Below are positions 1-42,989 of a stretch of DNA of 64,000 nt, one piece after another. Within the stretch, counting starts at the first letter, position 1, and every line of letters starts with the position of its first letter. The stretch is from assembly GCF_036507355.1 (NCBI RefSeq), contig NZ_AP027877.1. One strand, given 5' to 3'. Origin of the DNA: Escherichia coli (lineage in GTDB: Bacteria; Pseudomonadota; Gammaproteobacteria; Enterobacterales; Enterobacteriaceae). The notes under the pieces were generated by a model. It did no database searches and was not told the DNA's origin. It worked only from the letters and a program-made list of their open reading frames with translations. The position numbers were made by a program, and so were the translations under genes.

Positions 1-252
1 AAAAGGCGCTCGGCATCGAATTCAGTCGCGTCGCATGTTTTTTGACAAATTCCTGGAACGCAGAGTGGTAGTGACCATAGCGAATAGAAGCACCAATGAC
101 CACACGGTCATAATTTTCCCATTGTGGTTCTTCAATGCGGTGCACATTGGCGACATCCGTCTGGATCCCCAGTTCTTTCAGTTCCGAAGCCAGGTAGGAG
201 GCAATCTCGCGCGTTTGTCCGTCCCTTGTTGAGAAAAGAATTAATGTTTTCA
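1..252 (-). CDS. hemG: Protoporphyrinogen oxidase HemG, N-terminal part only (gene runs off the window start); GTG start
   Basis: Minus-strand translation reads [31 protein letters not shown]..., matching the flavodoxin-like HemG N-terminus; GGAG RBS upstream of the GTG at 250-252. Confidence 0.85.
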
Positions 253-264
253 CGTATTACTCCA

Positions 265-1716
265 TCATTCACGCCAGAAAGTCGGGGTAAAGAGCACCAG
301 CAATGTAAAGACCTCGAGACGACCAAACAGCATGTTGGCAATCAGGATCCATTTAGCCACCGGGTTCATACTGGTAAAGTTATCAGCAACCACGCCAAGC
401 CCTGGCCCCAGGTTATTCAATGTCGCAACAACTGAGGCAAAGGCAGAAAAGTCATCCACGCCCGTGGCGATAATCGCCAGCATACTGACAATAAACACCA
501 ATGCATAGGCGGAGAAAAATCCCCAAACGGCTTCGAGGATACGTTCCGGCAGTGCGCGATTCCCCAGCTTAATGCTATAGACGGCGTTCGGATGCACCAG
601 TCGTTTCAGCTCACGGTTCCCCTGCTTAAACAGCAGCAGGATGCGGATCACTTTCAGGCCACCGCCCGTTGACCCGGCACAACCGCCGATAAAAGCCGAA
701 CATAAAAGCAGTACCGGCAAAAAGAGCGGCCAGCGGGCAATGCTGTCAGTCGTAAACCCGGCGGTTGTCGCCATCGACACCACCTGGAAAAACGCCTGGT
801 TAATTGTCATCAGCGCCGAACTGTAGACATTATGAAACCACAGTACGAGGGTACAAATAACCACCAGCGTAAACTGTACGCCGATAAACATGCGAAATTC
901 CGGATCGCGCCAATAAACCTTCAGACTACGCCCACTTAACAGTGAAAAGTGCAGACCGTAGTTACAGCCGGAGATCAGCAGGAAGATAGCAATGATAGTG
1001 TTAATAGTCGGGCTATCGAAATAACCGATACTGGCATCATGTGTCGAGAAGCCGCCAATAGCGATAGTCGCAAAGCTATGGCCGATGGCATCAAAGGCAT
1101 CCATTCCGGCAAACCACAACGCCAGCGCACAGGCGACGGTCAGCAAGACATAAATCAACCACAGGGTTTTCGCCGTTTCCGCAATTCGCGGGCGCATTTT
1201 GTTATCTTTCAGCGGGCCGGGCATTTCTGCGCGATAGAGCTGCATCCCACCCACGCCGAGGATAGGCAGTATCGCAACCGCTAACACGATGATCCCCATC
1301 CCGCCAAACCATTGCAGCATCTGGCGATAAAAGAGGATGGCGTGAGGGAGCGAATCCAGCCCCACCAGCGTAGTGGCCCCGGTGGTGGTCAGGCCAGAGA
1401 AAGATTCAAAAAACGCATCGGTAATCGTGAGGTTCGGGCTTTCCGAGAAGATAAAAGGGAGCGCACCGACACTACCCAGCACGGTCCAGAACAGCACCAC
1501 TATCAGAAACCCCTCACGGGATTTCAGTTCGCCCTTCTCTTTGCGGTTCGGCCACCACAGCATAGAGCCAATGGCGAGGGCGACAAAAAAGGTCTGGGTA
1601 AAAGCGCGGCCCGCTCCATCCCGGTAGATGAGTGCTACCAGCCCAGGGATAATCATGGTCCCTGAAAATAAGATGACCAGTAGTCCAACGATTCGGGTAA
1701 TGGCGCGAAAATGCAT
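265..1716 (-). CDS. trkH: Trk potassium uptake protein TrkH
   Basis: 483-aa polytopic membrane ORF starting MHFRAITRIVGLLVILFSG; conserved position next to hemG. Confidence 0.93.
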   Translation of the reverse strand: MHFRAITRIVGLLVILFSGTMIIPGLVALIYRDGAGRAFTQTFFVALAIGSMLWWPNRKEKGELKSREGFLIVVLFWTVLGSVGALPFIFSESPNLTITDAFFESFSGLTTTGATTLVGLDSLPHAILFYRQMLQWFGGMGIIVLAVAILPILGVGGMQLYRAEMPGPLKDNKMRPRIAETAKTLWLIYVLLTVACALALWFAGMDAFDAIGHSFATIAIGGFSTHDASIGYFDSPTINTIIAIFLLISGCNYGLHFSLLSGRSLKVYWRDPEFRMFIGVQFTLVVICTLVLWFHNVYSSALMTINQAFFQVVSMATTAGFTTDSIARWPLFLPVLLLCSAFIGGCAGSTGGGLKVIRILLLFKQGNRELKRLVHPNAVYSIKLGNRALPERILEAVWGFFSAYALVFIVSMLAIIATGVDDFSAFASVVATLNNLGPGLGVVADNFTSMNPVAKWILIANMLFGRLEVFTLLVLFTPTFWRE

Positions 1717-1754
1717 CTCTGCCGCTTCCTTAGTTCTGCAAAACGAAGTGGGGA

Positions 1755-2372
1755 TTATTCTTCAATCGCTAACAATTGCAATGAACCACGGCTAAAATCC
1801 GCCAGCTTTGCGGAAAATTCAGCCACTTTCGCCGCCGGAAGCGCCACCCGCAGCAGAACGAATGCCTGATAATCACTGTTGATAATTTTGCCGTCACACT
1901 GCCCCAGCAACGCTTCAATGCCGGTTAACTGACTATATTCACATTGCAAAGTATATTCGGTTAATGGCGTCTTGCGTTGGGTCGTTAGCTGGCGCAGCGC
2001 CTGATTCACGCCGCCGCCATACGCTTTCACTAACCCACCGGTGCCAAGCAATATGCCGCCGTAGTAGCGCACCACCACAGCGGTAATTTCCCCAACGCCG
2101 CTGCCCATTAGCTGGGCGAGCATCGGTTTACCTGCCGTTCCCGCCGGCTCCCCATCGTCAGAGAACCCCAGCTGTTGTGAATCATCCGGCGCACCCGCCA
2201 CCCACGCCACGCAATGGTGGCGGGCATCGGGGTGTTCTGCCCGCACCGATTCAACAAACGCTTTCGCCGCCTCAACGCCATCGGTATGCGCCAACATCGT
2301 TATGAAGCGGCTTTTTTTGATCTCTTCAACGACCGTGACCGGTGCCGCAGGAATTAACCAGCTTTCCATCAC
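1755..2372 (-). CDS. yigZ: IMPACT-family protein YigZ
   Basis: 205-aa ORF; position between trkH and pepQ; 4-bp overlap with the pepQ stop. Confidence 0.85.
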
Positions 2373-3700
2373 GCCAGTTTCAGATCCCGGGTCATGTTTT
2401 CCACGTTGTTTTCGTGGATCACCACGTTGTCTTCGATACGAATGCCGCCGAACGGTTTCAGTGCTTCAATTTTCTGCCAGTTGAAGTGCTTGCTGAACTG
2501 CCCTTCACGCCACGGTGCCAGTAGCGATTCAATGAAGTAGATACCCGGTTCGATGGTTAACACCATGCCCGGCTGGAGAATACGGGTGCAGCGCAGGTAC
2601 GGATATTTTGCCGGTGCCGCGAGGTGCGTACCGCTATCATCCTGCATAAAACCGGCGACGTCATGCACCTGCAGGCCCAGCGGATGGCCGATACCGTGCG
2701 GCATAAACGGTCCGGTGAGATCGTTTTCGACCATCGCTTCTTCACTCATATCGGTGATGATTTGATGTTTACGCAGCAGTTTGGCGATGCGCTGATGGAA
2801 CTGGATGTGGTAATCCACATAGCTAACGCCAGCTTTCATGGTCGCGATCAGCGCCAGTTGTTCATCATTTACGTCTTTCACCAGCTGTGCGTAGTCGTTG
2901 TCGCTTTTTGCCGACCAGGTACGGGTCAGGTCAGCGGCATAGCCGTTATATTCGGCCCCGGCATCCAGCAGGAAGCTGCGCATCTCTTCCGGCGCCTGAT
3001 GATCCAGTTTGGTATAATGCAGCACCGCAGCGTGTTCGTTGAGCGCCACAATGTTGCTGTAAGGTACGTCGGTATCACGATGACCGGTCGCAGTCAGATA
3101 GGCAATATTGATATCGAACTCGCTCATGCCAGAACGGAACGCTTCTTCTGCCGCGCGATGACCGTTGACCGCCATTTTCTGCGCTTCACGCATACAAGCC
3201 AGCTCGTACTCGGTTTTGAAGGAGCGGTAGTAATGCAGGTAGTCGATAACCCCTTTCGGGTTGATATTGCTGGCCTCAATACCCAGTTGCAGCGCACGTT
3301 CCGGCACCGGACCGATATAACCGATATTGCCGCGCGCAGCAGGCAACAGACTACCAATTCCATCGGCTTTCGGCAGCGCGATCACTTCTACATCTTCAGT
3401 CCAGAAGGAGGTCGGCAGCGGTTCGACGTTGTGCCAGTAATCAACCGGCAGATAAAACCACAGTTTCGGCTTGTTCACGCCATCCACCAACAACCAGCAG
3501 TTTGGCACCTGAGTTACCGGCACCCACGCTTTGAATTGCGGGTTCACTTTAAACGGATAGGGATGATCGTCGAGAAAAACATTGAACAGCTCGCCGGAGT
3601 GAATAAGTAACGCATCCAGCTTGAAGCGCGCCAGCGCATCGCGAGTCCGTTCTTGTAAGGTAGCTATATGATTTTTATAGAGCGAGGCCAGTGATTCCAT
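2369..3700 (-). CDS. pepQ: Xaa-Pro dipeptidase PepQ
   Basis: 443-aa ORF with metallopeptidase M24 character ([13 protein letters not shown]); divergent from fadB. Confidence 0.92.
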
Positions 3701-18241: not shown

Positions 18242-18502
18242 ATACAACTCCTCTGTGAATCGGTTTAGTCAGAAGAAGCAAAAAGACACTTTACCGAAGG
18301 GTTTAACATTTTTTCGTGATACTCATCACCATGACGCAAATGCGTTGCATAAATTTACCCACCAAAAGTGATGCAAATCACATAAATCACTCTTCATTCT
18401 GCAGGACTGCATAAAAGATGAGCCGATTCAGGCAATGTGATTTGTTGCATGCTGACTATAGTTAACATTGCGCAACGTTTTTATAAGGGTACGGAGAATA
18501 CC

Positions 18503-19315
18503 ATGGCAACAACACAACAATCTGGATTTGCACCTGCTGCATCGCCTCTCGCTTCGACCATCGTTCAGACCCCGGACGACGCGATTGTGGCGGGCTTCAC
18601 CTCTATCCCTTCACAAGGGGATAACATGCCTGCTTACCATGCCAGACCAAAGCAAAGCGATGGCCCACTGCCAGTGGTCATTGTAGTGCAGGAAATTTTT
18701 GGCGTGCATGAACATATCCGCGACATTTGTCGCCGTCTGGCGCTGGAGGGGTATCTGGCTATCGCACCTGAACTTTACTTCCGCGAAGGCGATCCGAATG
18801 ATTTTGCCGATATCCCCACGTTGCTTAGCGGTCTGGTAGCAAAAGTGCCTGACTCGCAGGTGCTGGCCGATCTCGATCATGTCGCCAGTTGGGCTTCCCG
18901 CAACGGCGGCGATGTTCATCGTTTAATGATCACCGGATTCTGCTGGGGTGGACGTATCACCTGGCTGTATGCCGCGCATAATCCACAGCTAAAAGCCGCA
19001 GTGGCGTGGTACGGCAAACTGACGGGCGACAAGTCGCTGAATTCACCGAAACAACCTGTTGATATCGCAACCGATCTTAACGCGCCGGTTCTCGGCTTAT
19101 ATGGCGGTCAGGATAACAGCATTCCGCAGGAGAGCGTTGAAACCATGCGCCAGGCGCTGCGGGCTGCTAATGCGAAAGCAGAGATTATCGTGTACCCGGA
19201 TGCCGGGCATGCATTCAACGCTGATTATCGCCCGAGCTATCATGCCGAATCTGCGAAAGATGGCTGGCAGCGTATGCTGGAATGGTTTAAGCAGTATGGT
19301 GGGAAGCGGAGTTAG
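18503..19315 (+). CDS. ysgA: Dienelactone hydrolase-family protein YsgA
   Basis: Start placed at MATTQQSGFAPAAS with GGAG RBS; alpha/beta hydrolase. Confidence 0.85.
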   Translation: MATTQQSGFAPAASPLASTIVQTPDDAIVAGFTSIPSQGDNMPAYHARPKQSDGPLPVVIVVQEIFGVHEHIRDICRRLALEGYLAIAPELYFREGDPNDFADIPTLLSGLVAKVPDSQVLADLDHVASWASRNGGDVHRLMITGFCWGGRITWLYAAHNPQLKAAVAWYGKLTGDKSLNSPKQPVDIATDLNAPVLGLYGGQDNSIPQESVETMRQALRAANAKAEIIVYPDAGHAFNADYRPSYHAESAKDGWQRMLEWFKQYGGKRS

Positions 19316-19707
19316 TTTCCTCTTAGTCTATATTTGAGATGGTGAGTGAACGAGTGCGTTTTGCTGCCATCTCTGTCCCCCAAAAAATAATCAGTATGAA
19401 TTGATTGGAGATTACGACTCCGCTATTTGACCTTAAGAAAGTCGGCAAGTCATAGTCATAAATGAGTCTCTTCAATGGAAGACACCTTAGAGATTTACCA
19501 TCCACTCCCATTCACAAACAAACATTAATTATTATCAACACATTCACATTAATTATAAATCATCTCAGACCTTCCTGATAAAAAGATATTAAAGTGAAAC
19601 ATTGTGTTTTTCACATTTTAGTTCATCACTTTTAGGCGTAAATAAAGGTAAAAAAACAACAATACTATTTCTCTTTCACAAAAGAATTAACAAAAGGTTT
19701 TTCAAGG

Positions 19708-20856
19708 ATGAGTGATATTATTTACTTGACCATAACCGGAGAACAACAAGGATGTATTTCCTCTCGTTGTGGAACGAGCGCATCAATAGGTAATCGCTGG
19801 CAGATTGGCCATGAAGATGAAATCTTCGCGTTCTCGCTCTCTAATAGTATTACGAATACAGGCAAAGGGTCACAATTGCATGGCCTTAGTTTCTGTAAAT
19901 TGATTGACAAAAGCTCCCCGTTACTTATTAACGCTATTAACAATAACGAGCAGTTGTTCATGGAGTTTGACTTCTATCGGATCAATAGATTTGGTCGATG
20001 GGAGAAATATTACAACATTCAACTCCGCGGCGCGCTCTTATCAGCAATCAATCACCTGTTTACTGAGAACAATCTGGATACAGAAGCCATCACTGTCAGT
20101 TATGAATATATACTCTCCAGGCATCTGATTGCTAATACTGAATTTAGTTATTTGGCATTTCCCGATAACTACAACCGTCTGTTTATACCACGGCCAAAAA
20201 CTAAAGCTGGTAATGGTTTCAAAACACTTAACAGTAAAGCGGTTGGCAGACTGCTTGCTGCTGGTGGCATATACAATGGGAATATCGAAGGATTCAGGGA
20301 AACAGCAGACAAGTTGGGGGGAGATGCACCTGCTGGTTACGATCAATTTATGGATAACAAAGGGTTACTCATCGCTGGTGCTTCAATAGTTGCTGGAGCA
20401 GTTCTGGGGAGAATGAGACTCCCTGATTTGGAATCACTTGAGCATTTCGGAGCCAGAGGAGCAGTATCAGGAAGACCATTTAATCCCGACCTTGCCGGTG
20501 GTCCAATAGAAAATCTGACGACAGATGGCATAACAATCAACAGGGAAGGTATCGCTATTGTTGAAAAACACATAGCCAGATTTGGTCATGACCCTGTAAA
20601 TGAAGTGATGATCAATAGACTGAAAGACATTGAGAAAGGAAAAATCCCCCCAGAACAAGTAGATCTTAACTTCTATACTCATGAGTGTCGGGAATATCAG
20701 CGTTACTGTAATCTTGGTTGGGAAACAGGACAACCTGATGGTGACGCAGGCTATGCACTCTGGAATCATACGCATACTGCTACTCTAGAAGATTATAAAC
20801 TTAAGGGAGAACTTAATGACTTATACCACCAGGATGCACTTGACTATGATAACTGA
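19708..20856 (+). CDS. Hcp-fold protein with ~210-aa C-terminal extension (candidate 'evolved Hcp' type VI secretion effector); C-terminal domain unassigned
   Basis: N-terminal ~165 aa carry Hcp signature blocks (KLIDKSSPLL; FDFYRINRFG) aligning to KEIDSSSPYL and FKWYRIN of canonical Hcp; AAGGA RBS; gene visibly AT-rich; not in the K-12 ysgA-metE interval. Confidence 0.72.
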   Translation: MSDIIYLTITGEQQGCISSRCGTSASIGNRWQIGHEDEIFAFSLSNSITNTGKGSQLHGLSFCKLIDKSSPLLINAINNNEQLFMEFDFYRINRFGRWEKYYNIQLRGALLSAINHLFTENNLDTEAITVSYEYILSRHLIANTEFSYLAFPDNYNRLFIPRPKTKAGNGFKTLNSKAVGRLLAAGGIYNGNIEGFRETADKLGGDAPAGYDQFMDNKGLLIAGASIVAGAVLGRMRLPDLESLEHFGARGAVSGRPFNPDLAGGPIENLTTDGITINREGIAIVEKHIARFGHDPVNEVMINRLKDIEKGKIPPEQVDLNFYTHECREYQRYCNLGWETGQPDGDAGYALWNHTHTATLEDYKLKGELNDLYHQDALDYDN

Positions 20857-21091
20857 AACTGAAATTATCGTACTGAAAGTTATGGCTGAGAAAGATATAA
20901 ACTGGAACTGGATGAATCTCGATCGCACACTATCCATAAGGCAAATTCCAGGATTCGGTAATGTTGTTAACATTGTTAACAAATTAGCTAACGAGGGTTT
21001 GGTTATTATTGAGGATAGCGGACATAAGTCTATGCCTCACTACCACGTTACTGAAAAGGGATACAATTTCGTGAAAAGTGAGAATAAATAA
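20816..21091 (+). CDS. Small protein immediately downstream of the Hcp-extension gene; candidate cognate immunity protein (possible internal start at 20846)
   Basis: The ATG at 20846 overlaps the upstream stop in an ATGA arrangement; 81-91 aa; same strand; AT-rich. Confidence 0.5.
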   Translation: MTYTTRMHLTMITETEIIVLKVMAEKDINWNWMNLDRTLSIRQIPGFGNVVNIVNKLANEGLVIIEDSGHKSMPHYHVTEKGYNFVKSENK

Positions 21092-21237
21092 CGTAGCGTT
21101 GATTACTGAACAAATCGCTCAGGATTATATTTTGCGTAAAAATGATTCGGTTATTTCTGTATCTGAACGGGCGCAGATAGCAAAATGGCTTCCGGTGATG
21201 GAAGCCATCAGATTATTGGCAAAGTGCGCGTTGTTCA

Positions 21238-21325
21238 TGCCGGATGCGGCGTGAACGCCTTGTCCAGCCAACAAAACCCAAAAATTCAATAAATTGCATA
21301 AATTATGTAGGCCTGGTATCAGGCA
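21238..21325. repeat. REP unit plus IHF-site-like spacer plus partial REP (RIP-type BIME)
   Basis: TGCCGGATGCGGCGTGAACGCCTTGTCC, then AAAAATTCAATAAATTG, then GTAGGCCTGGTATCAGGC. Confidence 0.75.
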
Positions 21326-21375
21326 GTTTTGCCTCTTTCATCGTACTGCAATTTACAGTGACTCGTTAATATTCA

Positions 21376-23637
21376 TCATCCCCGACGCAAATTCTGCGCC
21401 GCCTGCACCATATTCGCCAGTGCTGCGCGGGTTTCTGGCCAGCCGCGCGTTTTCAGGCCACAGTCCGGGTTGACCCACAGGCGCTCTGCCGGAATGCGTT
21501 TTGCCGCTTTCTTCAGCAAGGCTTCAATCCATTCTACGCTCGGTACGTTTGGCGAGTGAATGTCATAGACGCCTGGACCGATTTCATTCGGATAATCAAA
21601 CTCTTCAAACGACTCCAGCAACTCCATGTCGGAACGCGAGGTTTCGATGGTGATGACGTCTGCGTCCAGTGCCGCAATCGAATCCATGATGTCGTTGAAC
21701 TCGCAATAACACATGTGAGTGTGGATTTGTGTGTCATCTTTCGCCACGGCGGCGTTGATACGGAAGGCCTCCACGCCCCACTGGAGATATGCATCCCAGT
21801 CGCTACGACGCAGCGGTAAACCTTCGCGCAGCGCCGGTTCATCAATCTGGATGATGCCAATTCCTGCGGCTTCCAGGTCCGCCACTTCATCACGCAGCGC
21901 CAGCGCAATTTGTTTGGCGATGGTTTCACGGCTGACATCTTCACGCGGGAACGACCAGCAGAGAATGGTCACCGGGCCAGTCAGCATCCCTTTCACCGGT
22001 TTATCAGTCAGAGATTGCGCATACTTCGCCCACTCAACGGTAATCGGTGCCGGGCGGCTAATATCACCAATGACAATCGGTGGCTTCACGCAGCGGGAAC
22101 CATAGCTCTGTACCCAACCGTTTTGCGTAAAGACAAACCCGTCGAGGTGCTCGCCAAAGTATTCCACCATGTCATTACGCTCGGCCTCGCCATGTACCAG
22201 CACATCCAGTCCCAAACGTTCCTGTTCAACAATGGCCTGCCTGATATGTTCTGCAATGCCCGTGCGGTAGTTATTGGCGTCGAGATTGCCCTTTTTGAAA
22301 TCCAGACGCAGGGTACGAATTTCCGTGGTTTGCGGGAAGGAACCAATCGTGGTGGTCGGCCACGCTGGCAGTTTAAAACGCGCACGCTGGGCTTCAGCAC
22401 GCACTTCATAGACATTCGCACGCTGGCTGTCCTGGGCGGTGATCGCCGCCAGACGCTTTTCTACCGCCGGATTATGTACACGAGTAGAGTGACGACGCGC
22501 CTGAATTGGGGCGCTCCACTCTGCCAGAGCTGCCGTGTCACCACTGTTCAGCGCATCGCGCAGCAGTGCCAGTTCATGGCATTTTTGTAGGGCGAAGGCA
22601 AACCAGCTTTTCACTTCTGCATCAAGACGCGTTTCCACGCTCAGGTCGATGGGGCTGTGCAGCAACGAGCAGGAAGATGCCACCCACAAATCACGTTTGC
22701 CGACAATGTCCTTAATTTGCGCATATTTCTCAGTAAGATCGGCGCGCCAGACGTTACGACCATTGATCAGACCCGCAGACAGCAGCCAGTCAGAAGGCAG
22801 GCGCTTGTGCAGTTCAACAACGTCATCTTTACCATGTACAAGGTCCACATGCAGCCCCTGAACAGGCAGCGCAGTAATCGTGTCGAGATTTGGCGTTACG
22901 CCTTCAAAATAGGTGGTCAGCAGCAGTTTCACCTGTCCCTGGAGCGCGTCGTAAGCGGGTTTGTATGCGTCCAGCCACGCCTGTGGTAGTTCCAGTACCA
23001 GCGCGGGTTCATCAATCTGTACCCACTCGATGCCGCGTTTCGCCAGTTCTGCCAGCACTTGCTGATAAACCGGCAGAATGTCGTTCAGCAGGCTAAGGCG
23101 GTCAAACTGTTCACCTTTCACTTTCCCCAGCCACAGCCAGGTAATCGGCCCCAGCAGCACAGGCTTAACGTTGTGGCCCAGCGCCAGCGCCTCGTCCACT
23201 TCCTCCAGCAGCTGCGTCCAGGTTAGTTTGAACTGTTGGCCTTTAACGAATTCCGGCACCATGTAGTGATAGTTGGTGTTAAACCATTTGGTCATTTCCG
23301 CTGCCGCCGCAGGTTCGCCAGTCGGCGCACGTCCACGACCAATACGGAACAGGGTGTCGATATCTACCGAACCGTCTTTGTTCTGATGACGCGCCGGAAC
23401 GTTACCCAGCAGCAGACTGGTGGTCAGAACATGATCGTACCAGGCAAAATCGCCCACCGGCAGCAGGTCGATACCCGCTTGCTTTTGTTGATCCCAGTGA
23501 CGAGCACGCAATTCACGCCCTACCGCCAGCAGTTCTTCACGCGTGGAGTTCCCCGCCCAATAACTCTCTTGCGCTTTTTTCAGCTCGCGACGCAGGCCAA
23601 CGCGAGGGAAACCGAGGGTGTGATTCAATATTGTCAT
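21376..23637 (-). CDS. metE: Cobalamin-independent methionine synthase MetE
   Basis: 753-aa [32 protein letters not shown]. Confidence 0.96.
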
Positions 23638-33435: not shown

Positions 33436-33813
33436 TTGCATGAGAGTGGGCATATTGCCATGCTGACAGGAGACTCACACAAGGATGTAAAATTTATGTT
33501 ACGTATGTTTATCCCAACATCTAACGGTAAGATTTCCAGACGCCGTTATATATTTTCATTTATTTTAATAAACTTCATTTTTGCCTTTCTTATTATCTTT
33601 TTTAACGATGGAGAAGCAGGTTTTCTTGTTATAGTCTCTACCATCTTACTCCATTATCTCGTCATCAATCTGAATTGCCAACGACTCCGTGATAGTGGTT
33701 TCGTCTATATAAAAACTTATGTTTTTGGTACATTAGCAGTATATATCATCTCTATCATCACAATGATAGCCGAAGATTTTGCCTGTTCAGGCAATGGTTC
33801 GATGATTTTTTAA
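33436..33813 (+). CDS. yigG: Small inner membrane protein YigG
   Basis: 125-aa ORF with two hydrophobic helices; position after rarD; AT-rich. Confidence 0.6.
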
Positions 33814-33888
33814 TTTGTTATTTTTCCACTTTCAGTATGCTAATGCTTGCACCTACTGATTCATCAAAACAATAGTTATGGAGTATTT

Positions 33889-34269
33889 ATGAGTAAGGAA
33901 TATATGAACGATGGTTCATTAAGTGAAAAATGGAAATACCGATTTAATTTTTATGATCAACATGGTTTTCCTGGATTCTGGGGGGCAACACCAGAATATA
34001 AAGCAGCATTTAAAGCATTAAAAGTAAGACAACGCTTAACTATTCAAATGAATTTCATTGCTTTCTTCTGTTCCTAGATATATTTATTTGTCCTGGGGTT
34101 ATGGAAAAAAGCAATTATAGTTCTATTACTTGGTATTCTATCTCTATTTGTTGGTGCACTAATTGGCGTTAACATTCTGGGTATTGCCGTAGCAGCCTAT
34201 GTTGCTGTTAACACGAACAAATGGTTCTATGAGAAAGAAGTAAAAGGGTTAAATACCTGGAGCCTTTGA
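33889..34269 (+). pseudogene. yigF: yigF (DUF2628-type small membrane protein) interrupted by an in-frame amber codon at 34075-34077
   Basis: MSKEYMNDGSLSEKWKYRFNFYDQHGFPGFWG... stops at TAG after 62 codons, then the same frame stays open for 63 more protein-like hydrophobic codons to TGA at 34267-34269. Confidence 0.6.
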
Positions 34270-34309
34270 ATAAGAGGTGGCTTAGCCAGGCTAAGCCACC
34301 GCCTTCTTT

Positions 34310-34445
34310 TTACAACCAGTTCTTGCGCTTAAAGTACAGATACGGTGCCAGGCCCGCGAGGATCATAAAGATAATCGCGCCTGGGTAGCCGAAACTCCAC
34401 TTCAGTTCTGGCATAAACTCAAAGTTCATGCCATAGCTGGAGGCA
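34310..34445 (-). repeat. Orphan near-identical copy of the corA 3' end (direct repeat of 36017-36150)
   Basis: Encodes ...[43 protein letters not shown], the CorA C-terminus including the GMN motif; only a few mismatches to the intact corA 3' end. Confidence 0.85.
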
Positions 34446-34637
34446 ATCCGCGTAGGAAAAAGTTTCCTAATCGGTAAATTCAACATATTGTTATTAACAA
34501 TGGGCAAAACCAATCAATAACGAGATTCCCTTCGGAATGTAATAAAAATGTGAAGTGTACTTCTTTTTTAAAATTTTTTATCCTAGCATTTGTTCTCAAA
34601 TTGATATTGAGCTTAAATATAACCAAGGAAAATGTAA

Positions 34638-35345
34638 ATGAATAACACATTACTTCCATCAATTAATATTCCCTGTACACTTTTCGAAACTATTAGTTTA
34701 TTTGATGATTATTCTGCTGATGATATGCAATATGGTGATATGGTAGAACAAGATTTTCTCTCACTCGGCCTAAGCGATATCTCAGCAAAAGTTGATCCTT
34801 ACAGACTTATTAAATACCATTTCCCTGGCCCAGGTTCTGTTAATGTTGTTTTTAGTGCCTCAAGTTCCGGAACAAAAATATCACAACGTGAATGCACTGA
34901 TATTTTATTTGCAGAAATGAAAGAACTAGCAAAAAATTTTTCCTTTTTTGGACAATATAAAACACTTATCGAAGATCTGATTGAACATTTTAGATATGGA
35001 AATGGCAGCAATTTTCATAGCCAACAATTAAATTTATCTTTTCATGAAAAGATAAATAAATATGGTTATAATAGTCCAATACGAATAATCAAAGAATGTA
35101 TCGAAAATGGCATTAATTCAACTCCCTCGACAGGATACCAACCTCTTATCCTGCAAAGCATTAAAACCAAATTACTTTCATCAAGACTAAATAAATTTAA
35201 TGACTTCGAGGACAGTTTTAATGGCTTAGGAATCAGTATTCATGATATTTCAGCTCAAAAAAATATCTCTTTTAAGCTTTCAAAAATACGCTATAGGGTG
35301 GAGTGCGACAATTCATTTTGTAGCACAGGACCACTTCGGTCTTGA
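34638..35345 (+). CDS. Hypothetical protein in the AT-rich corA-adjacent insert; probably frameshifted (alternative frame continues to 35487)
   Basis: 235-aa ORF with no match recalled; AT-rich; an A7 tract at 35260-35266 lies where a second frame opens and runs to a TGA overlapping the next gene start. Confidence 0.45.
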   Translation: MNNTLLPSINIPCTLFETISLFDDYSADDMQYGDMVEQDFLSLGLSDISAKVDPYRLIKYHFPGPGSVNVVFSASSSGTKISQRECTDILFAEMKELAKNFSFFGQYKTLIEDLIEHFRYGNGSNFHSQQLNLSFHEKINKYGYNSPIRIIKECIENGINSTPSTGYQPLILQSIKTKLLSSRLNKFNDFEDSFNGLGISIHDISAQKNISFKLSKIRYRVECDNSFCSTGPLRS

Positions 35346-35483
35346 TGTAACTGATATCAAAAACAAGACTTACAGCAAATATAGATTTTTTCGCATATGG
35401 TTCTTTTTACAACGGCATAAAGGCTTTGCTTTCAAACCTTTTTTCACCAATTTTAACACTATCGAAAGAATCGAAAATTATCT

Positions 35484-35975
35484 ATGAAAAGCAAACGCCA
35501 GAAAATTATATTATGTTTATTTCTTCTATGCTGTATCTATAATTTATGGACATTGCGTCCTGTACAGATTTTGTATACATACTCTGATGCTGGCAATTCA
35601 GTCTTTCTGGTCGTTGATCATCTGCCATGGACTGACAGCGATAAAATAAATTGGTATCTGAAGCATCAGAATGAAATTAAAAATCAACATCCCCTACCAG
35701 AAGGTAGTTGGCATACCTGGTATGTCATTGATATCGGTAATGGCTTCACTGACTATAAAAAATATATCGAAGGGCCGTATGAAGATCTCTACTGTTTCCC
35801 GACAATTAAGAGCAATGATAATTGCATCGTGAAAAATTACTTAATGGTTATTAATGAATACCCTTATCGTAACACTCATATTGGTATTAACGATTTTACT
35901 GAGTATCAATTAACACAAGAAAATAAAATAGAGCGAGTTTTCAATCCGCATGACTTTAAAAAAGACAATTTTTAG
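35484..35975 (+). CDS. Hypothetical small membrane-anchored protein (N-terminal signal/TM segment), second gene of the insert
   Basis: 163-aa ORF MKSKRQKIILCLFLLCCIYNLW...; Trp/Tyr-rich; AT-rich; followed by a GCCGGATAAA...TTTATCCGGC hairpin. Confidence 0.5.
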   Translation: MKSKRQKIILCLFLLCCIYNLWTLRPVQILYTYSDAGNSVFLVVDHLPWTDSDKINWYLKHQNEIKNQHPLPEGSWHTWYVIDIGNGFTDYKKYIEGPYEDLYCFPTIKSNDNCIVKNYLMVINEYPYRNTHIGINDFTEYQLTQENKIERVFNPHDFKKDNF

Positions 35976-42093: not shown

Positions 42094-42989
42094 TATTTCC
42101 CCCGTTTGGCGCGTGGATGCGCCGCATCGTACACCGAGGCAAGGTGTTGAAAATCAAGATGAGTATAGATTTGCGTGGTGGAGAGGTTGGCATGACCCAG
42201 CAGCTCCTGCACACCACGAAGATCGCCGCTCGACTCCAGCATATGCGTAGCGAACGAGTGACGTAATTTATGCGGGTGAACGTGATTATTCAGCCCTTGT
42301 TTTATGCCCCATTCGGCAAAGCGTTTCTGCACATTACGCGCGGAGATACGCTTGCCCAGTTTCGACAGAAAAAGCGCGTCGTCTTCGCTACCAAACAGGT
42401 CGCGCAAATCAAGCCAGTGCTCAATCCACGCCACAGCGTTGCGACCAATCGGCAGGCGGCGCTCTTTGCTGCCTTTCCCCATTACCCACACTTCACCAGA
42501 CTCCAGGTCGAGGTGTTTGATATCCAGCCCCACCAGCTCGGAAAGACGCAGACCCGCGCCGTACATCACTTCCAGCATTGCACGGTCGCGTACAGCGAGG
42601 GGATCGTTGATATCAATATCCAGCAGCCGATTCATATCGTCGACGTCGATGTTTTTCGGCAGATGACGCGGCGCTTTCGGTGCCGAAACACCTTTCGCCG
42701 GGTTAGCTTTGAGTTCGTTCTGGCTGACCAGCCAGTCAAAAAAGCTACGTAGCGCAGAAAGCCGTAACGCGAGGCTTGCTGCTCCCAGCCCTTTACGGCG
42801 ACTGCGTACAGCAAAATTGCGTACCATCGCTGCATCGCATTGTTGCCAGCTTTGCAGGCCGTTTTCGCTGGCAAAATTGATGATCGCCTCAAGCTGACGC
42901 TGGTAGTTAAGTAGGGTTATCGGGCTAAGCTGACGCTCCACGCTCAGATAACGTAGGTAGCGTTCTACATCGGTGTGTAAATCGGTCAT
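42093..42989 (-). CDS. xerC: Tyrosine site-specific recombinase XerC
   Basis: 298-aa ORF with integrase motifs ([12 protein letters not shown]; C-terminal Tyr). Confidence 0.95.

Follow-up and report, generated by a model that had tools for sequence, protein, structure and literature searches.

A probable orphan Hcp effector with a predicted toxin extension and a candidate immunity gene at the ysgA–metE junction of Escherichia coli

Introduction

A two-gene module located between ysgA and metE was analysed in a stretch of Escherichia coli DNA of 64,000 nucleotides (NCBI RefSeq assembly GCF_036507355.1, contig NZ_AP027877.1), which is called the window in the following. The first gene encodes a protein of 382 aa that starts with an Hcp/TssD domain, the tube protein of type VI secretion systems (T6SS), and the second, overlapping gene encodes a protein of 81 aa. 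Very probably this is an orphan effector-immunity module of type VI secretion, belonging to the class of Hcp proteins that carry a toxin as an extension of the C-terminus (Hcp-ET) and acquired horizontally at the ysgA–metE junction.

Hcp-fused toxins are an established yet sparsely studied route of T6SS delivery. Hcp-ETs were described as a class of their own (Ma et al. 2017, Virulence), and according to reviews and a preprint Hcp-ET1 is reported to be an antibacterial effector that depends on T6SS2 for its delivery and is neutralised by ETI1. Similarly, for Citrobacter koseri it was shown that T6EC4, an Hcp protein with an unannotated C-terminus encoded in an orphan operon, is toxic in the E. 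coli cytoplasm and that this toxicity is rescued by the downstream T6IC4; its tip was reported to be Tox-REase-5-like (Geller et al. 2024, Mol Syst Biol, PMC11148199). A comparable plan is found in Usp/Hcp-ET3-4 with Imu1-3 of uropathogenic E. coli, which combines an Hcp-like N-terminus with bacteriocin-type killing domains and several immunity genes. More generally, polymorphic toxins such as Rhs, PAAR and CdiA proteins, in the framework of Zhang and Aravind, share a delivery part that stays the same, a swappable tip, an adjacent immunity gene and orphan immunity cassettes. The window module is one instance of this framework.

The module in comparison with described Hcp effectors

Hcp-ET1 was located in E. 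coli O104:H4 C227-11 as the yhhZ-locus gene between yhhY and yrhA. Like the window module, Hcp-ET1/YhhZ and ETI1/YrhA (strains C227-11, 55989 and STEC004) form an orphan two-gene unit outside T6SS clusters with the immunity gene directly downstream, and Hcp domain and linker are 74% identical to the window protein over aa 1–230. Beyond this point the two proteins are unrelated, the tip of Hcp-ET1 showing a weak HNH signature, whereas that of the window protein is predicted to be all-helical and has no Pfam match. The immunity proteins differ as well: YrhA has 164 aa and the winged-helix candidate of the window has 81 aa, with a BLASTP match (E 0.02) restricted to a short N-terminal stretch. 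Since E. coli 55989 possesses Hcp-ET1 yet an empty ysgA–metE site, the window gene belongs to another locus than the yhhY–yrhA site of Hcp-ET1; in Citrobacter, a toxin of the window type occupies Hcp-ET1's own yhhZ site. Identity with Hcp-ET1 was rejected, as the chassis is the same but tip, locus and immunity protein differ. Judged from these sequence comparisons, the module and yhhZ/Hcp-ET1 are paralogues that differ by an exchange of the toxin-immunity tip. The class is already known, and the novelty lies in the tip.

Citrobacter koseri encodes an Hcp-ET of 363/366 aa whose Hcp domain and linker are 64% identical to the window protein and which diverges after ~aa 218, ending in a different tip; of the immunity gene of the window type, this locus has no more than an orphan copy. 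This 363-aa protein is probably T6EC4, as assigned from the species and the extension length of 227 aa only. T6EC4 was tried as an ortholog of the window protein and judged to be, more probably, a sibling, with the similarity to the C. koseri tip lost after ~aa 218 and no PF15648 match for the window protein. One and the same Hcp-plus-linker carrier bears at least three unrelated toxins, which is a signature of a polymorphic toxin system and amounts to a natural experiment in the swapping of toxin tips.

The tip also links the module to secreted bacteriocins. Many proteins annotated as S-type pyocins or as pyosin/cloacin translocation domain proteins end in the same tip and have small immunity genes behind them. 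Such bacteriocins reach their targets by diffusion and contain domains for receptor binding and translocation, whereas the window protein is predicted to be a subunit of the T6SS tube. It shows no Pyocin_S domain (PF06958), PF05638 being the only Pfam domain found, and it is not counted among the S-type pyocins. Moreover, Usp contains Pyocin_S and colicin-DNase (HNH) domains, neither of which is present in the window protein.

The carrier: Hcp domain and linker

The exact sequence of the 382-aa protein is found in public databases. Its residues 1–147 match TIGR03344 with 125.8 bits, well above the curated cut-off of 58.9 (E 1.6e-36), residues 6–135 match Pfam PF05638 (E 1.3e-13), and Hcp chains of the PDB are matched with values down to 1e-14 (6a2v). 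By these profiles residues 1–147 are a bona fide Hcp/TssD domain. A first, sequence-only reading of this DNA had proposed such a domain from the hallmarks KLIDKSSPLL and FDFYRINRFG, both of which are present, and had taken the remaining C-terminal part to be unrelated to Hcp; both proposals hold, the latter for the last 230 residues. Its placement of the module in a class of type VI effectors with fused toxin and immunity gene agrees with the published Hcp-ETs as well. For this class, more than 60–120 aa beyond Hcp are taken as long enough for a domain, and here an extension of ~235 aa follows an Hcp domain that ends at ~aa 147. The carrier part is furthermore homologous to an experimentally validated member, Hcp-ET1, and the overlapping 81-aa gene provides the directly downstream immunity candidate.

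According to the family alignments, the extension is composed of two modules, a linker of ~aa 150–240 and a separate toxin tip of ~aa 245–380. The linker contains the most hydrophobic stretch of the whole protein, with the hydropathy peak at aa 219–233 (GLLIAGASIVAGAVLG). It is conserved in three Hcp-ETs, namely the window protein, Hcp-ET1 and the C. koseri Hcp-ET. It also occurs behind other N-termini: in Atlantibacter and Citrobacter it follows DUF8093, and in Pantoea a domain of ~130 aa that has no name. Residues 169–236 (window 20212–20415) match phrog_31266 and phrog_14497, two families without assigned function (E ~1e-14), which indicates that the linker also occurs in phage- or prophage-encoded proteins. 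By analogy to the glycine-zipper and cytoplasm-entry modules of other toxins, these features suggest that the linker might aid the toxin in crossing the inner membrane of the target cell. Being common to three unrelated Hcp toxins, it could be a dedicated cytoplasm-entry module.

The predicted toxin tip

A HMMER scan with residues 160–382 as query against 1.84 billion representatives resulted in 551 clusters (at 50% identity) with E <= 1e-3 and 410 with E <= 1e-10, which have aa ~245–380 as their common core. The tip lies at most 25 residues from the C-terminus in 252 of the 263 proteins that were retrieved. Among these are long carriers of 1,450, 1,695, 5,157 and 5,214 aa, a YD-shell/RHS protein (P0165) and a protein with He_PIG repeats (P0132). 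Similarly, a Foldseek search of AFDB50 gave 122 matches at E <= 1e-3, comprising relatives from E. coli, Shigella and Citrobacter, PAAR, RHS and DUF8093 proteins and S-type pyocins. Dozens of the matches are named "S-type pyocin" or "pyosin/cloacin translocation domain" (TM-score 0.80–0.85, 41–49% identity) and originate from Salmonella, Serratia, Pseudomonas, Pectobacterium and Morganella. Altogether, the tip is carried by Hcp, DUF8093, the unnamed 130-aa N-terminus, PAAR, RHS/YD-shell, He_PIG and S-type pyocin proteins, so that one tip is found at the extreme C-terminus of various delivery domains, as is typical for polymorphic toxins. Judged by this distribution, the tip is very probably a real killing domain that moves between carriers.

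An alignment of 58 diverse members revealed G281, H288, F292, D319, H325, E326, E329, W352 and H356 as invariant residues and the motifs YTHE(C/L)RExxRY and LWNxxHTATLEDY. AlphaFold2 predicts an almost strand-free domain of six helices with high confidence (predicted local distance difference test, pLDDT, 93.1; predicted template modelling score, pTM, 0.84). No member of the 58 matched Pfam at E <= 1e-3, and a newer precomputed Pfam annotation shows only PF05638 for these proteins. The best Foldseek match of the tip in the PDB has an E of 1.8, a profile search of PDB sequences remained empty, and none of the characterised pyocin killing domains checked in the PDB (HNH, E3, E5 and D types) matches the tip fold. 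No description of the domain came to light in the literature that was searched for the tip motifs, for DUF8093, for ysgA/metE together with Hcp and for new killing domains of pyocins. The remote-homology and structure comparison that had been proposed for this part thus yielded a confidently predicted all-helical fold with neither a Pfam family nor a solved relative.

The conserved set of His, Asp, Glu, Arg and Tyr residues suggests that the tip is likely a metal-dependent hydrolase, with nucleic acid as the most probable substrate or, perhaps, nucleotides. It is possible, and put forward here tentatively, that the tip represents an undescribed family of all-helical killing domains with an H/D/HE..E/H cluster and a winged-helix immunity family of its own, which is distributed in Gamma- and Betaproteobacteria and travels by four routes (Hcp, PAAR/Rhs, giant YD-shell proteins and S-type pyocins). 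If this is true, its activity would be a new enzymatic class among bacteriocin and T6SS toxins. With its 140 residues and a partner of 81 residues, the tip offers a tractable way into a widespread family of predicted killing domains with which pyocins and Rhs proteins are armed as well.

It was also considered whether the tip is an HNH or colicin-type DNase, which would make the protein another Hcp-ET1. Public names point in this direction, as NCBI labels fragments of the family "HNH endonuclease" and "colicin", one of the 58 members has a marginal HNH_4 match (E 0.08), and Hcp-ET1, built on the same chassis, is of the HNH type. The "colicin" labels are probably explained by the pyocin/cloacin-type relatives. 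The window protein has no similarity to Hcp-ET1 past aa 230 and no HNH or colicin-DNase match in Pfam even at E <= 10; no His-Me structure is found among the PDB matches; and in the AlphaFold2 model the candidate histidines lie inside helices, which is incompatible with the beta-beta-alpha finger and makes the HNH label unfit. By Pfam, the all-alpha model and the fold searches, an HNH/colicin DNase identity was rejected, and we consider it highly improbable.

The bacteriocin relatives also bear on the question of the target. An effector aimed at eukaryotic cells is suggested by Usp, which consists of an Hcp-like and a nuclease domain with immunity genes and was reported to be genotoxic to mammalian cells, and by the pathogenic background of carriers, which include enterotoxigenic (ETEC), enterohaemorrhagic (EHEC) and extraintestinal pathogenic (ExPEC) E. 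coli lineages. This is very unlikely for the window protein, since the same tip is used by S-type pyocins and by colicin-like bacteriocins, whose targets are bacteria, and since having an immunity gene of its own implies that the producing cell can itself be harmed. For the antibacterial toxin proposed here a cytoplasmic target is argued for by the use of the same tip in bacteriocins with a pyocin/cloacin translocation domain.

The candidate immunity gene

The downstream gene starts with ATG 20846, as called by the NCBI Prokaryotic Genome Annotation Pipeline (PGAP) and as supported by an N-terminus common to the homologues. It overlaps the toxin stop codon (TGA, 20854–56) by 11 nt (ATGATAACTGA). 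The sequence-only reading had described an 81–91-aa reading frame whose start overlaps this stop in an ATGA; reading frame and overlap stand, and the ATGA has to be replaced by the 11-nt overlap. An overlap of 4 nt does occur in the B2 and Pantoea variants.

The 81-aa family comprises 38 clusters, all of them in Enterobacteriaceae at the search sensitivity used. Homologues are found directly 3' of the toxin domain, with overlaps of 4–11 nt, in Citrobacter, Pantoea and Atlantibacter. As an example, the Citrobacter homologue stands behind an Hcp carrier at the yhhZ site, the Pantoea homologue behind a tip with the unnamed N-terminus of ~130 aa (loci L012/L013, 6001–7316), and in Atlantibacter the carriers are DUF8093 (PF26362) proteins with two tandem toxin-immunity pairs (locus L014, 4301–7393). 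The Pantoea unit of linker, toxin and immunity gene adjoins a type I restriction system, a reverse transcriptase and an OLD-like ATPase. Moreover, behind a metagenomic toxin of only 58% identity stands a 79-aa protein, which hhalign aligns to the family profile with 96.8% probability (E 2e-10), and a 79-aa reading frame likewise follows the RHS protein of 5,157 aa. In total, the family trails the tip across at least five genera and N-terminal architectures, which bears out the position expected of an immunity gene, directly downstream of its toxin.

Toxin and immunity sequences also vary together. Toxins with the loop GQPDGDAGY and the tail ...DLYHxDALxYDN are paired with immunity proteins containing IEDSGHxSMPxY, and toxins with GEPxGxxGY and ...DLFHPDAxK with immunity proteins containing ...ExxSKPxY. 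The immunity protein of the window has the loop IEDSGHKSMP (subtype A), and the 85-aa paralogue of UTI89 has NGEGNSKP (subtype B). This is suggestive of a co-variation of toxin subtype and immunity loop subtype, in a sample of seven pairs only. Orphan immunity cassettes and, within this small sample, subtype co-variation are both expected for a polymorphic toxin and are both found here.

The 81-aa protein is publicly named "MarR family transcriptional regulator", and its predicted structure is a winged helix (H-H-H-E-E-H, pLDDT 85–97) with weak profile matches to HTH_45, EarA, PadR and DUF4364 (E 0.004–0.16). The name, the fold and the weak PadR and HTH_45 matches would also fit a pair that is no toxin system at all, consisting of a structural Hcp with an accessory domain and a small MarR-like regulator. 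Dimeric MarR proteins have a length of ~140–150 aa. Membership in the MarR regulators was rejected, as the protein has no MarR match in Pfam or NCBIfam and its 81 aa do not reach the length that a MarR dimer requires. Furthermore, the tip ends S-type pyocins, Rhs and PAAR proteins, which are toxin carriers, and orphan copies of the small gene pile up in arrays beside known immunity families such as Imm35. We regard the regulator explanation as scarcely credible. The 81-aa protein is a candidate for the cognate immunity protein because it follows the tip regardless of the N-terminal domain. In current annotation the pair carries only the labels "TssD" and "hypothetical" or "MarR regulator", and an assignment as effector and immunity candidate would be a gain for the annotation of many genomes.

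Access to a T6SS and proposed mode of action

Over the 50 kb that were compared, the window runs collinearly and position by position with E. coli 88-3493 (NZ_CP027457.1), the genome closest to it, and PGAP labels the 382-aa reading frame "tssD" and the small one "hypothetical protein" in this genome. Within these 50 kb no T6SS gene is present, as expected for the orphan status that had been assigned to the module within the window. In 88-3493, a full T6SS cluster is located at aspV, ~0.86 Mb from the module, and comprises tssB, C, E, F, G, tagH, tssJ, K, dotU, clpV, vasI, tssA, tssM, two hcp genes, vgrG and Rhs. The window Hcp domain is 41% identical over its full length to the 159-aa Hcp of this cluster and 30% identical to the 172-aa one.

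The mode of action would proceed in five steps. By analogy to Hcp-ET1, the Hcp domain would join the Hcp tube of a T6SS that is encoded elsewhere, in mixed rings of which it would probably be the rarer subunit. Contraction of the sheath would then fire the chimera into a neighbouring bacterium, where the linker might help the toxin to reach the cytoplasm. There, the toxin would act via the cluster of H288, D319, H325, E326, E329 and H356. In the producer and its kin, the 81-aa protein translated from the overlapping gene would bind and neutralise the toxin, as suggested by adjacency and co-variation.

Distribution and decay

The distribution was counted by megablast with the coding module as query against 5,426 complete E. 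coli genomes. The module is present in 848 of them (15.6%), always on the chromosome, and absent from 4,578. Among the carriers, 123 have the window type with at least 95% identity and 725 a type with 80–95% identity. The comparison of the ysgA–metE interval across genomes, which had been proposed as a check, thus shows a common but not ubiquitous module, and no characterisation of the locus or of the tip was found. With roughly one complete genome in six, ysgA–metE is a second chromosomal hotspot for Hcp-fused toxins in E. coli beside yhhZ.

In UTI89 and ATCC 25922, the two genomes of the 80–95% type that were inspected, the module occupies that end of a 16-kb region which is next to metE; the region is catalogued as "GR29 metE..ysgA" in a recent comparative paper; in UTI89 the metE-side junction is the same as in the window and the ysgA side is unrelated. 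Behind the toxin gene both strains carry an 85-aa immunity paralogue (60% identical to the immunity protein of the window) and an 81-aa orphan copy (88%), both intact. As the orphan copy is 88% identical, these strains may resist a toxin of the window type. In E. coli O145:H28 RM13514 the immunity protein is identical to that of the window (WP_000627421.1). At the yhhY–ggt (yhhZ) site of Citrobacter (loci L009-L011 and L017-L019), Hcp-ET genes occur in tandem together with arrays of small orphan reading frames. Among the latter are a protein of the Imm35 family and, unaccompanied by its toxin, the immunity gene of the window type. Loss of the toxin, as detailed below, with retention of immunity in the other lineages inspected bears on the defence between E. 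coli lineages in the gut.

Several observations weigh against a functional effector-immunity pair. An internal stop interrupts the toxin gene of UTI89 and ATCC 25922 (loci L004/L005, 3001–4708), an element of the insertion sequence (IS) family IS3 splits the window-type hcp-ET gene of O145:H28 RM13514 after ~codon 218 (locus L023, 994–3688), and the Shigella entries include proteins that cover only short parts of the toxin domain, one of which bears the name "IS1 orfB". A toxin broken in the other lineages inspected suggests weak selection for it. Concerning delivery, the VasL-domain gene of the aspV cluster is frameshifted in 88-3493 (locus L022, 33839–35249), which could affect T6SS function, and Hcp-ET1 reportedly needs T6SS2, which need not be the type of the aspV cluster. 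An AlphaFold2 model of toxin, linker and immunity protein in one fused chain, used as a proxy for the complex, reached a pTM of only 0.66, a value that fits with as well as without a confident interface. Finally, the translocation role of the linker is the weakest step of the proposed mechanism, derived from conservation and composition only.

The decay outlined above might mean that the module is a relic, i.e., that the immunity gene is what is selected, as a protection from the same toxin when others fire or release it, and that the toxin gene is no longer deployed in this strain. The pseudogene with two retained immunity paralogues in UTI89 and ATCC 25922, the split toxin beside an identical immunity gene in O145:H28, the immunity homologue kept without its toxin in C. 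koseri, the frameshift in the T6SS of the closest genome and the presence of members of the immunity cluster on at least 1000 contigs are all in line with this possibility. In the window itself, by contrast, the toxin allele is intact and of full length as compared to the Citrobacter orthologues, all invariant residues are present, and the leader and the translational overlap are preserved. A relic is hence unlikely, albeit less so than the HNH, regulator and eukaryotic-target explanations, and an effector-immunity module remains the preferred reading of the window allele.

The inserted island and the ysgA–metE site

The junction of E. coli 55989, in which ysgA and metE are adjacent with a spacing of 38 bp, served as the empty-site reference for the limits of the island. 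Homology to 55989 stops at window position 19306 and restarts at ~21380, which gives an island of 2,073 bp. In its place the empty junction has 47 bp, among them the three terminal codons of ysgA, the hairpin between the genes and the stop codon of metE, so that with the island the end of ysgA changes from KSL* to RS* and that of metE from GGG TAA to GGA TGA. The comparison revealed no target-site duplication at the island ends. The GC content across the block is 0.33–0.43, as compared to 0.52–0.57 in the flanks and 0.512 in the whole window. The sequence-only reading is thereby borne out in its description of an AT-rich block that parts two otherwise adjacent genes, with an overall GC of 0.397 as compared to its flanks, with the adjacency seen in 55989 and with 4,578 of the 5,426 genomes free of the module; its proposal of horizontal acquisition agrees with the low GC and the existing empty site. 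The island is of foreign origin. Coordinates of all features are collected in Table 1.

Table 1. Features of the ysgA–metE region in the window (positions in the 64,000-nucleotide stretch)
Feature	Position	Strand	Description
hcp-ET gene	19708..20856	+	Intact 382-aa reading frame; predicted specialised Hcp effector; "tssD" in PGAP annotation of the collinear genome
Hcp/TssD tube-protein domain, aa 1–147	19708..20148	+	Profile and structure-database matches
Linker / pre-toxin module, aa ~150–240	20155..20427	+	Carries KTLNSKAVGRLLAAGGIYNGNIEGF (G187xxxG191xxxG195) and the hydrophobic Gly/Ala-rich GLLIAGASIVAGAVLG
C-terminal toxin domain (predicted), aa ~245–382	20440..20853	+	~140 residues; family alignment, AlphaFold2 model, no Pfam/PDB match
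Cognate immunity gene candidate	20846..21091	+	81 aa, predicted winged helix; reading frame open from 20816 (91 aa)
Inserted island	19307..21379	.	2,073 bp, GC 0.397; junctions compared with the empty site of E. coli 55989
Non-coding leader	19316..19707	+	392 bp, GC 0.33; sigma-70-like matches 19364–19391 and 19427–19456
Stem-loop 3' of immunity gene	21185..21208	+	Perfect 9-bp stem ATGGCTTCC / GGAAGCCAT; kept in UTI89 type (alignment)
Segment of 129 bp, not in UTI89-type locus	21209..21337	.	REP-like element (~21240–21270, GCCGGATGCGGCGTGAACGCCTTGTCCAGCC) and terminator-like hairpin 21311–21324 (terminator scan)
ysgA	18503–19315	+	PGAP start, 270 aa; program-made reading frame starts at GTG 18437 (18437–19315, 292 aa)
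metE	21376–23637	-	Second gene of the junction

The sigma-70-like sites in the leader are consensus matches only, nine being found where 6.4 +/- 2.6 are expected. With the UTI89-type locus the leader has its last ~190 bp in common, and with the yhhZ (Hcp-ET1) locus its last ~73 bp. The stem-loop that lies downstream of the immunity gene may be a structure at the transcript end; it is not a canonical terminator, as a T-run is missing. PGAP annotates a 40-aa "hypothetical protein" at 21132–21254 in the collinear genome, which spans this 9-bp hairpin and enters the REP-like element (REP, repetitive extragenic palindromic), and which for this reason probably is no gene. The REP-like element was also taken as the cause of matches in nearly every E. 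coli genome that were obtained with a wide query of 19316–21375 and not with the coding-only query. A PADLOC scan gave no match.

Two further observations were made elsewhere in the window. Its GC minimum is found at ~33500–35600 (0.337 over 2,073 bp), which is below the GC content of the island, in a region that holds yigG, yigF and corA in the collinear annotation. In addition, this annotation shows a fragment of a DKNYY-family pseudogene at 42325–42503 between lptM and cyaY, which is frameshifted and contains an internal stop.

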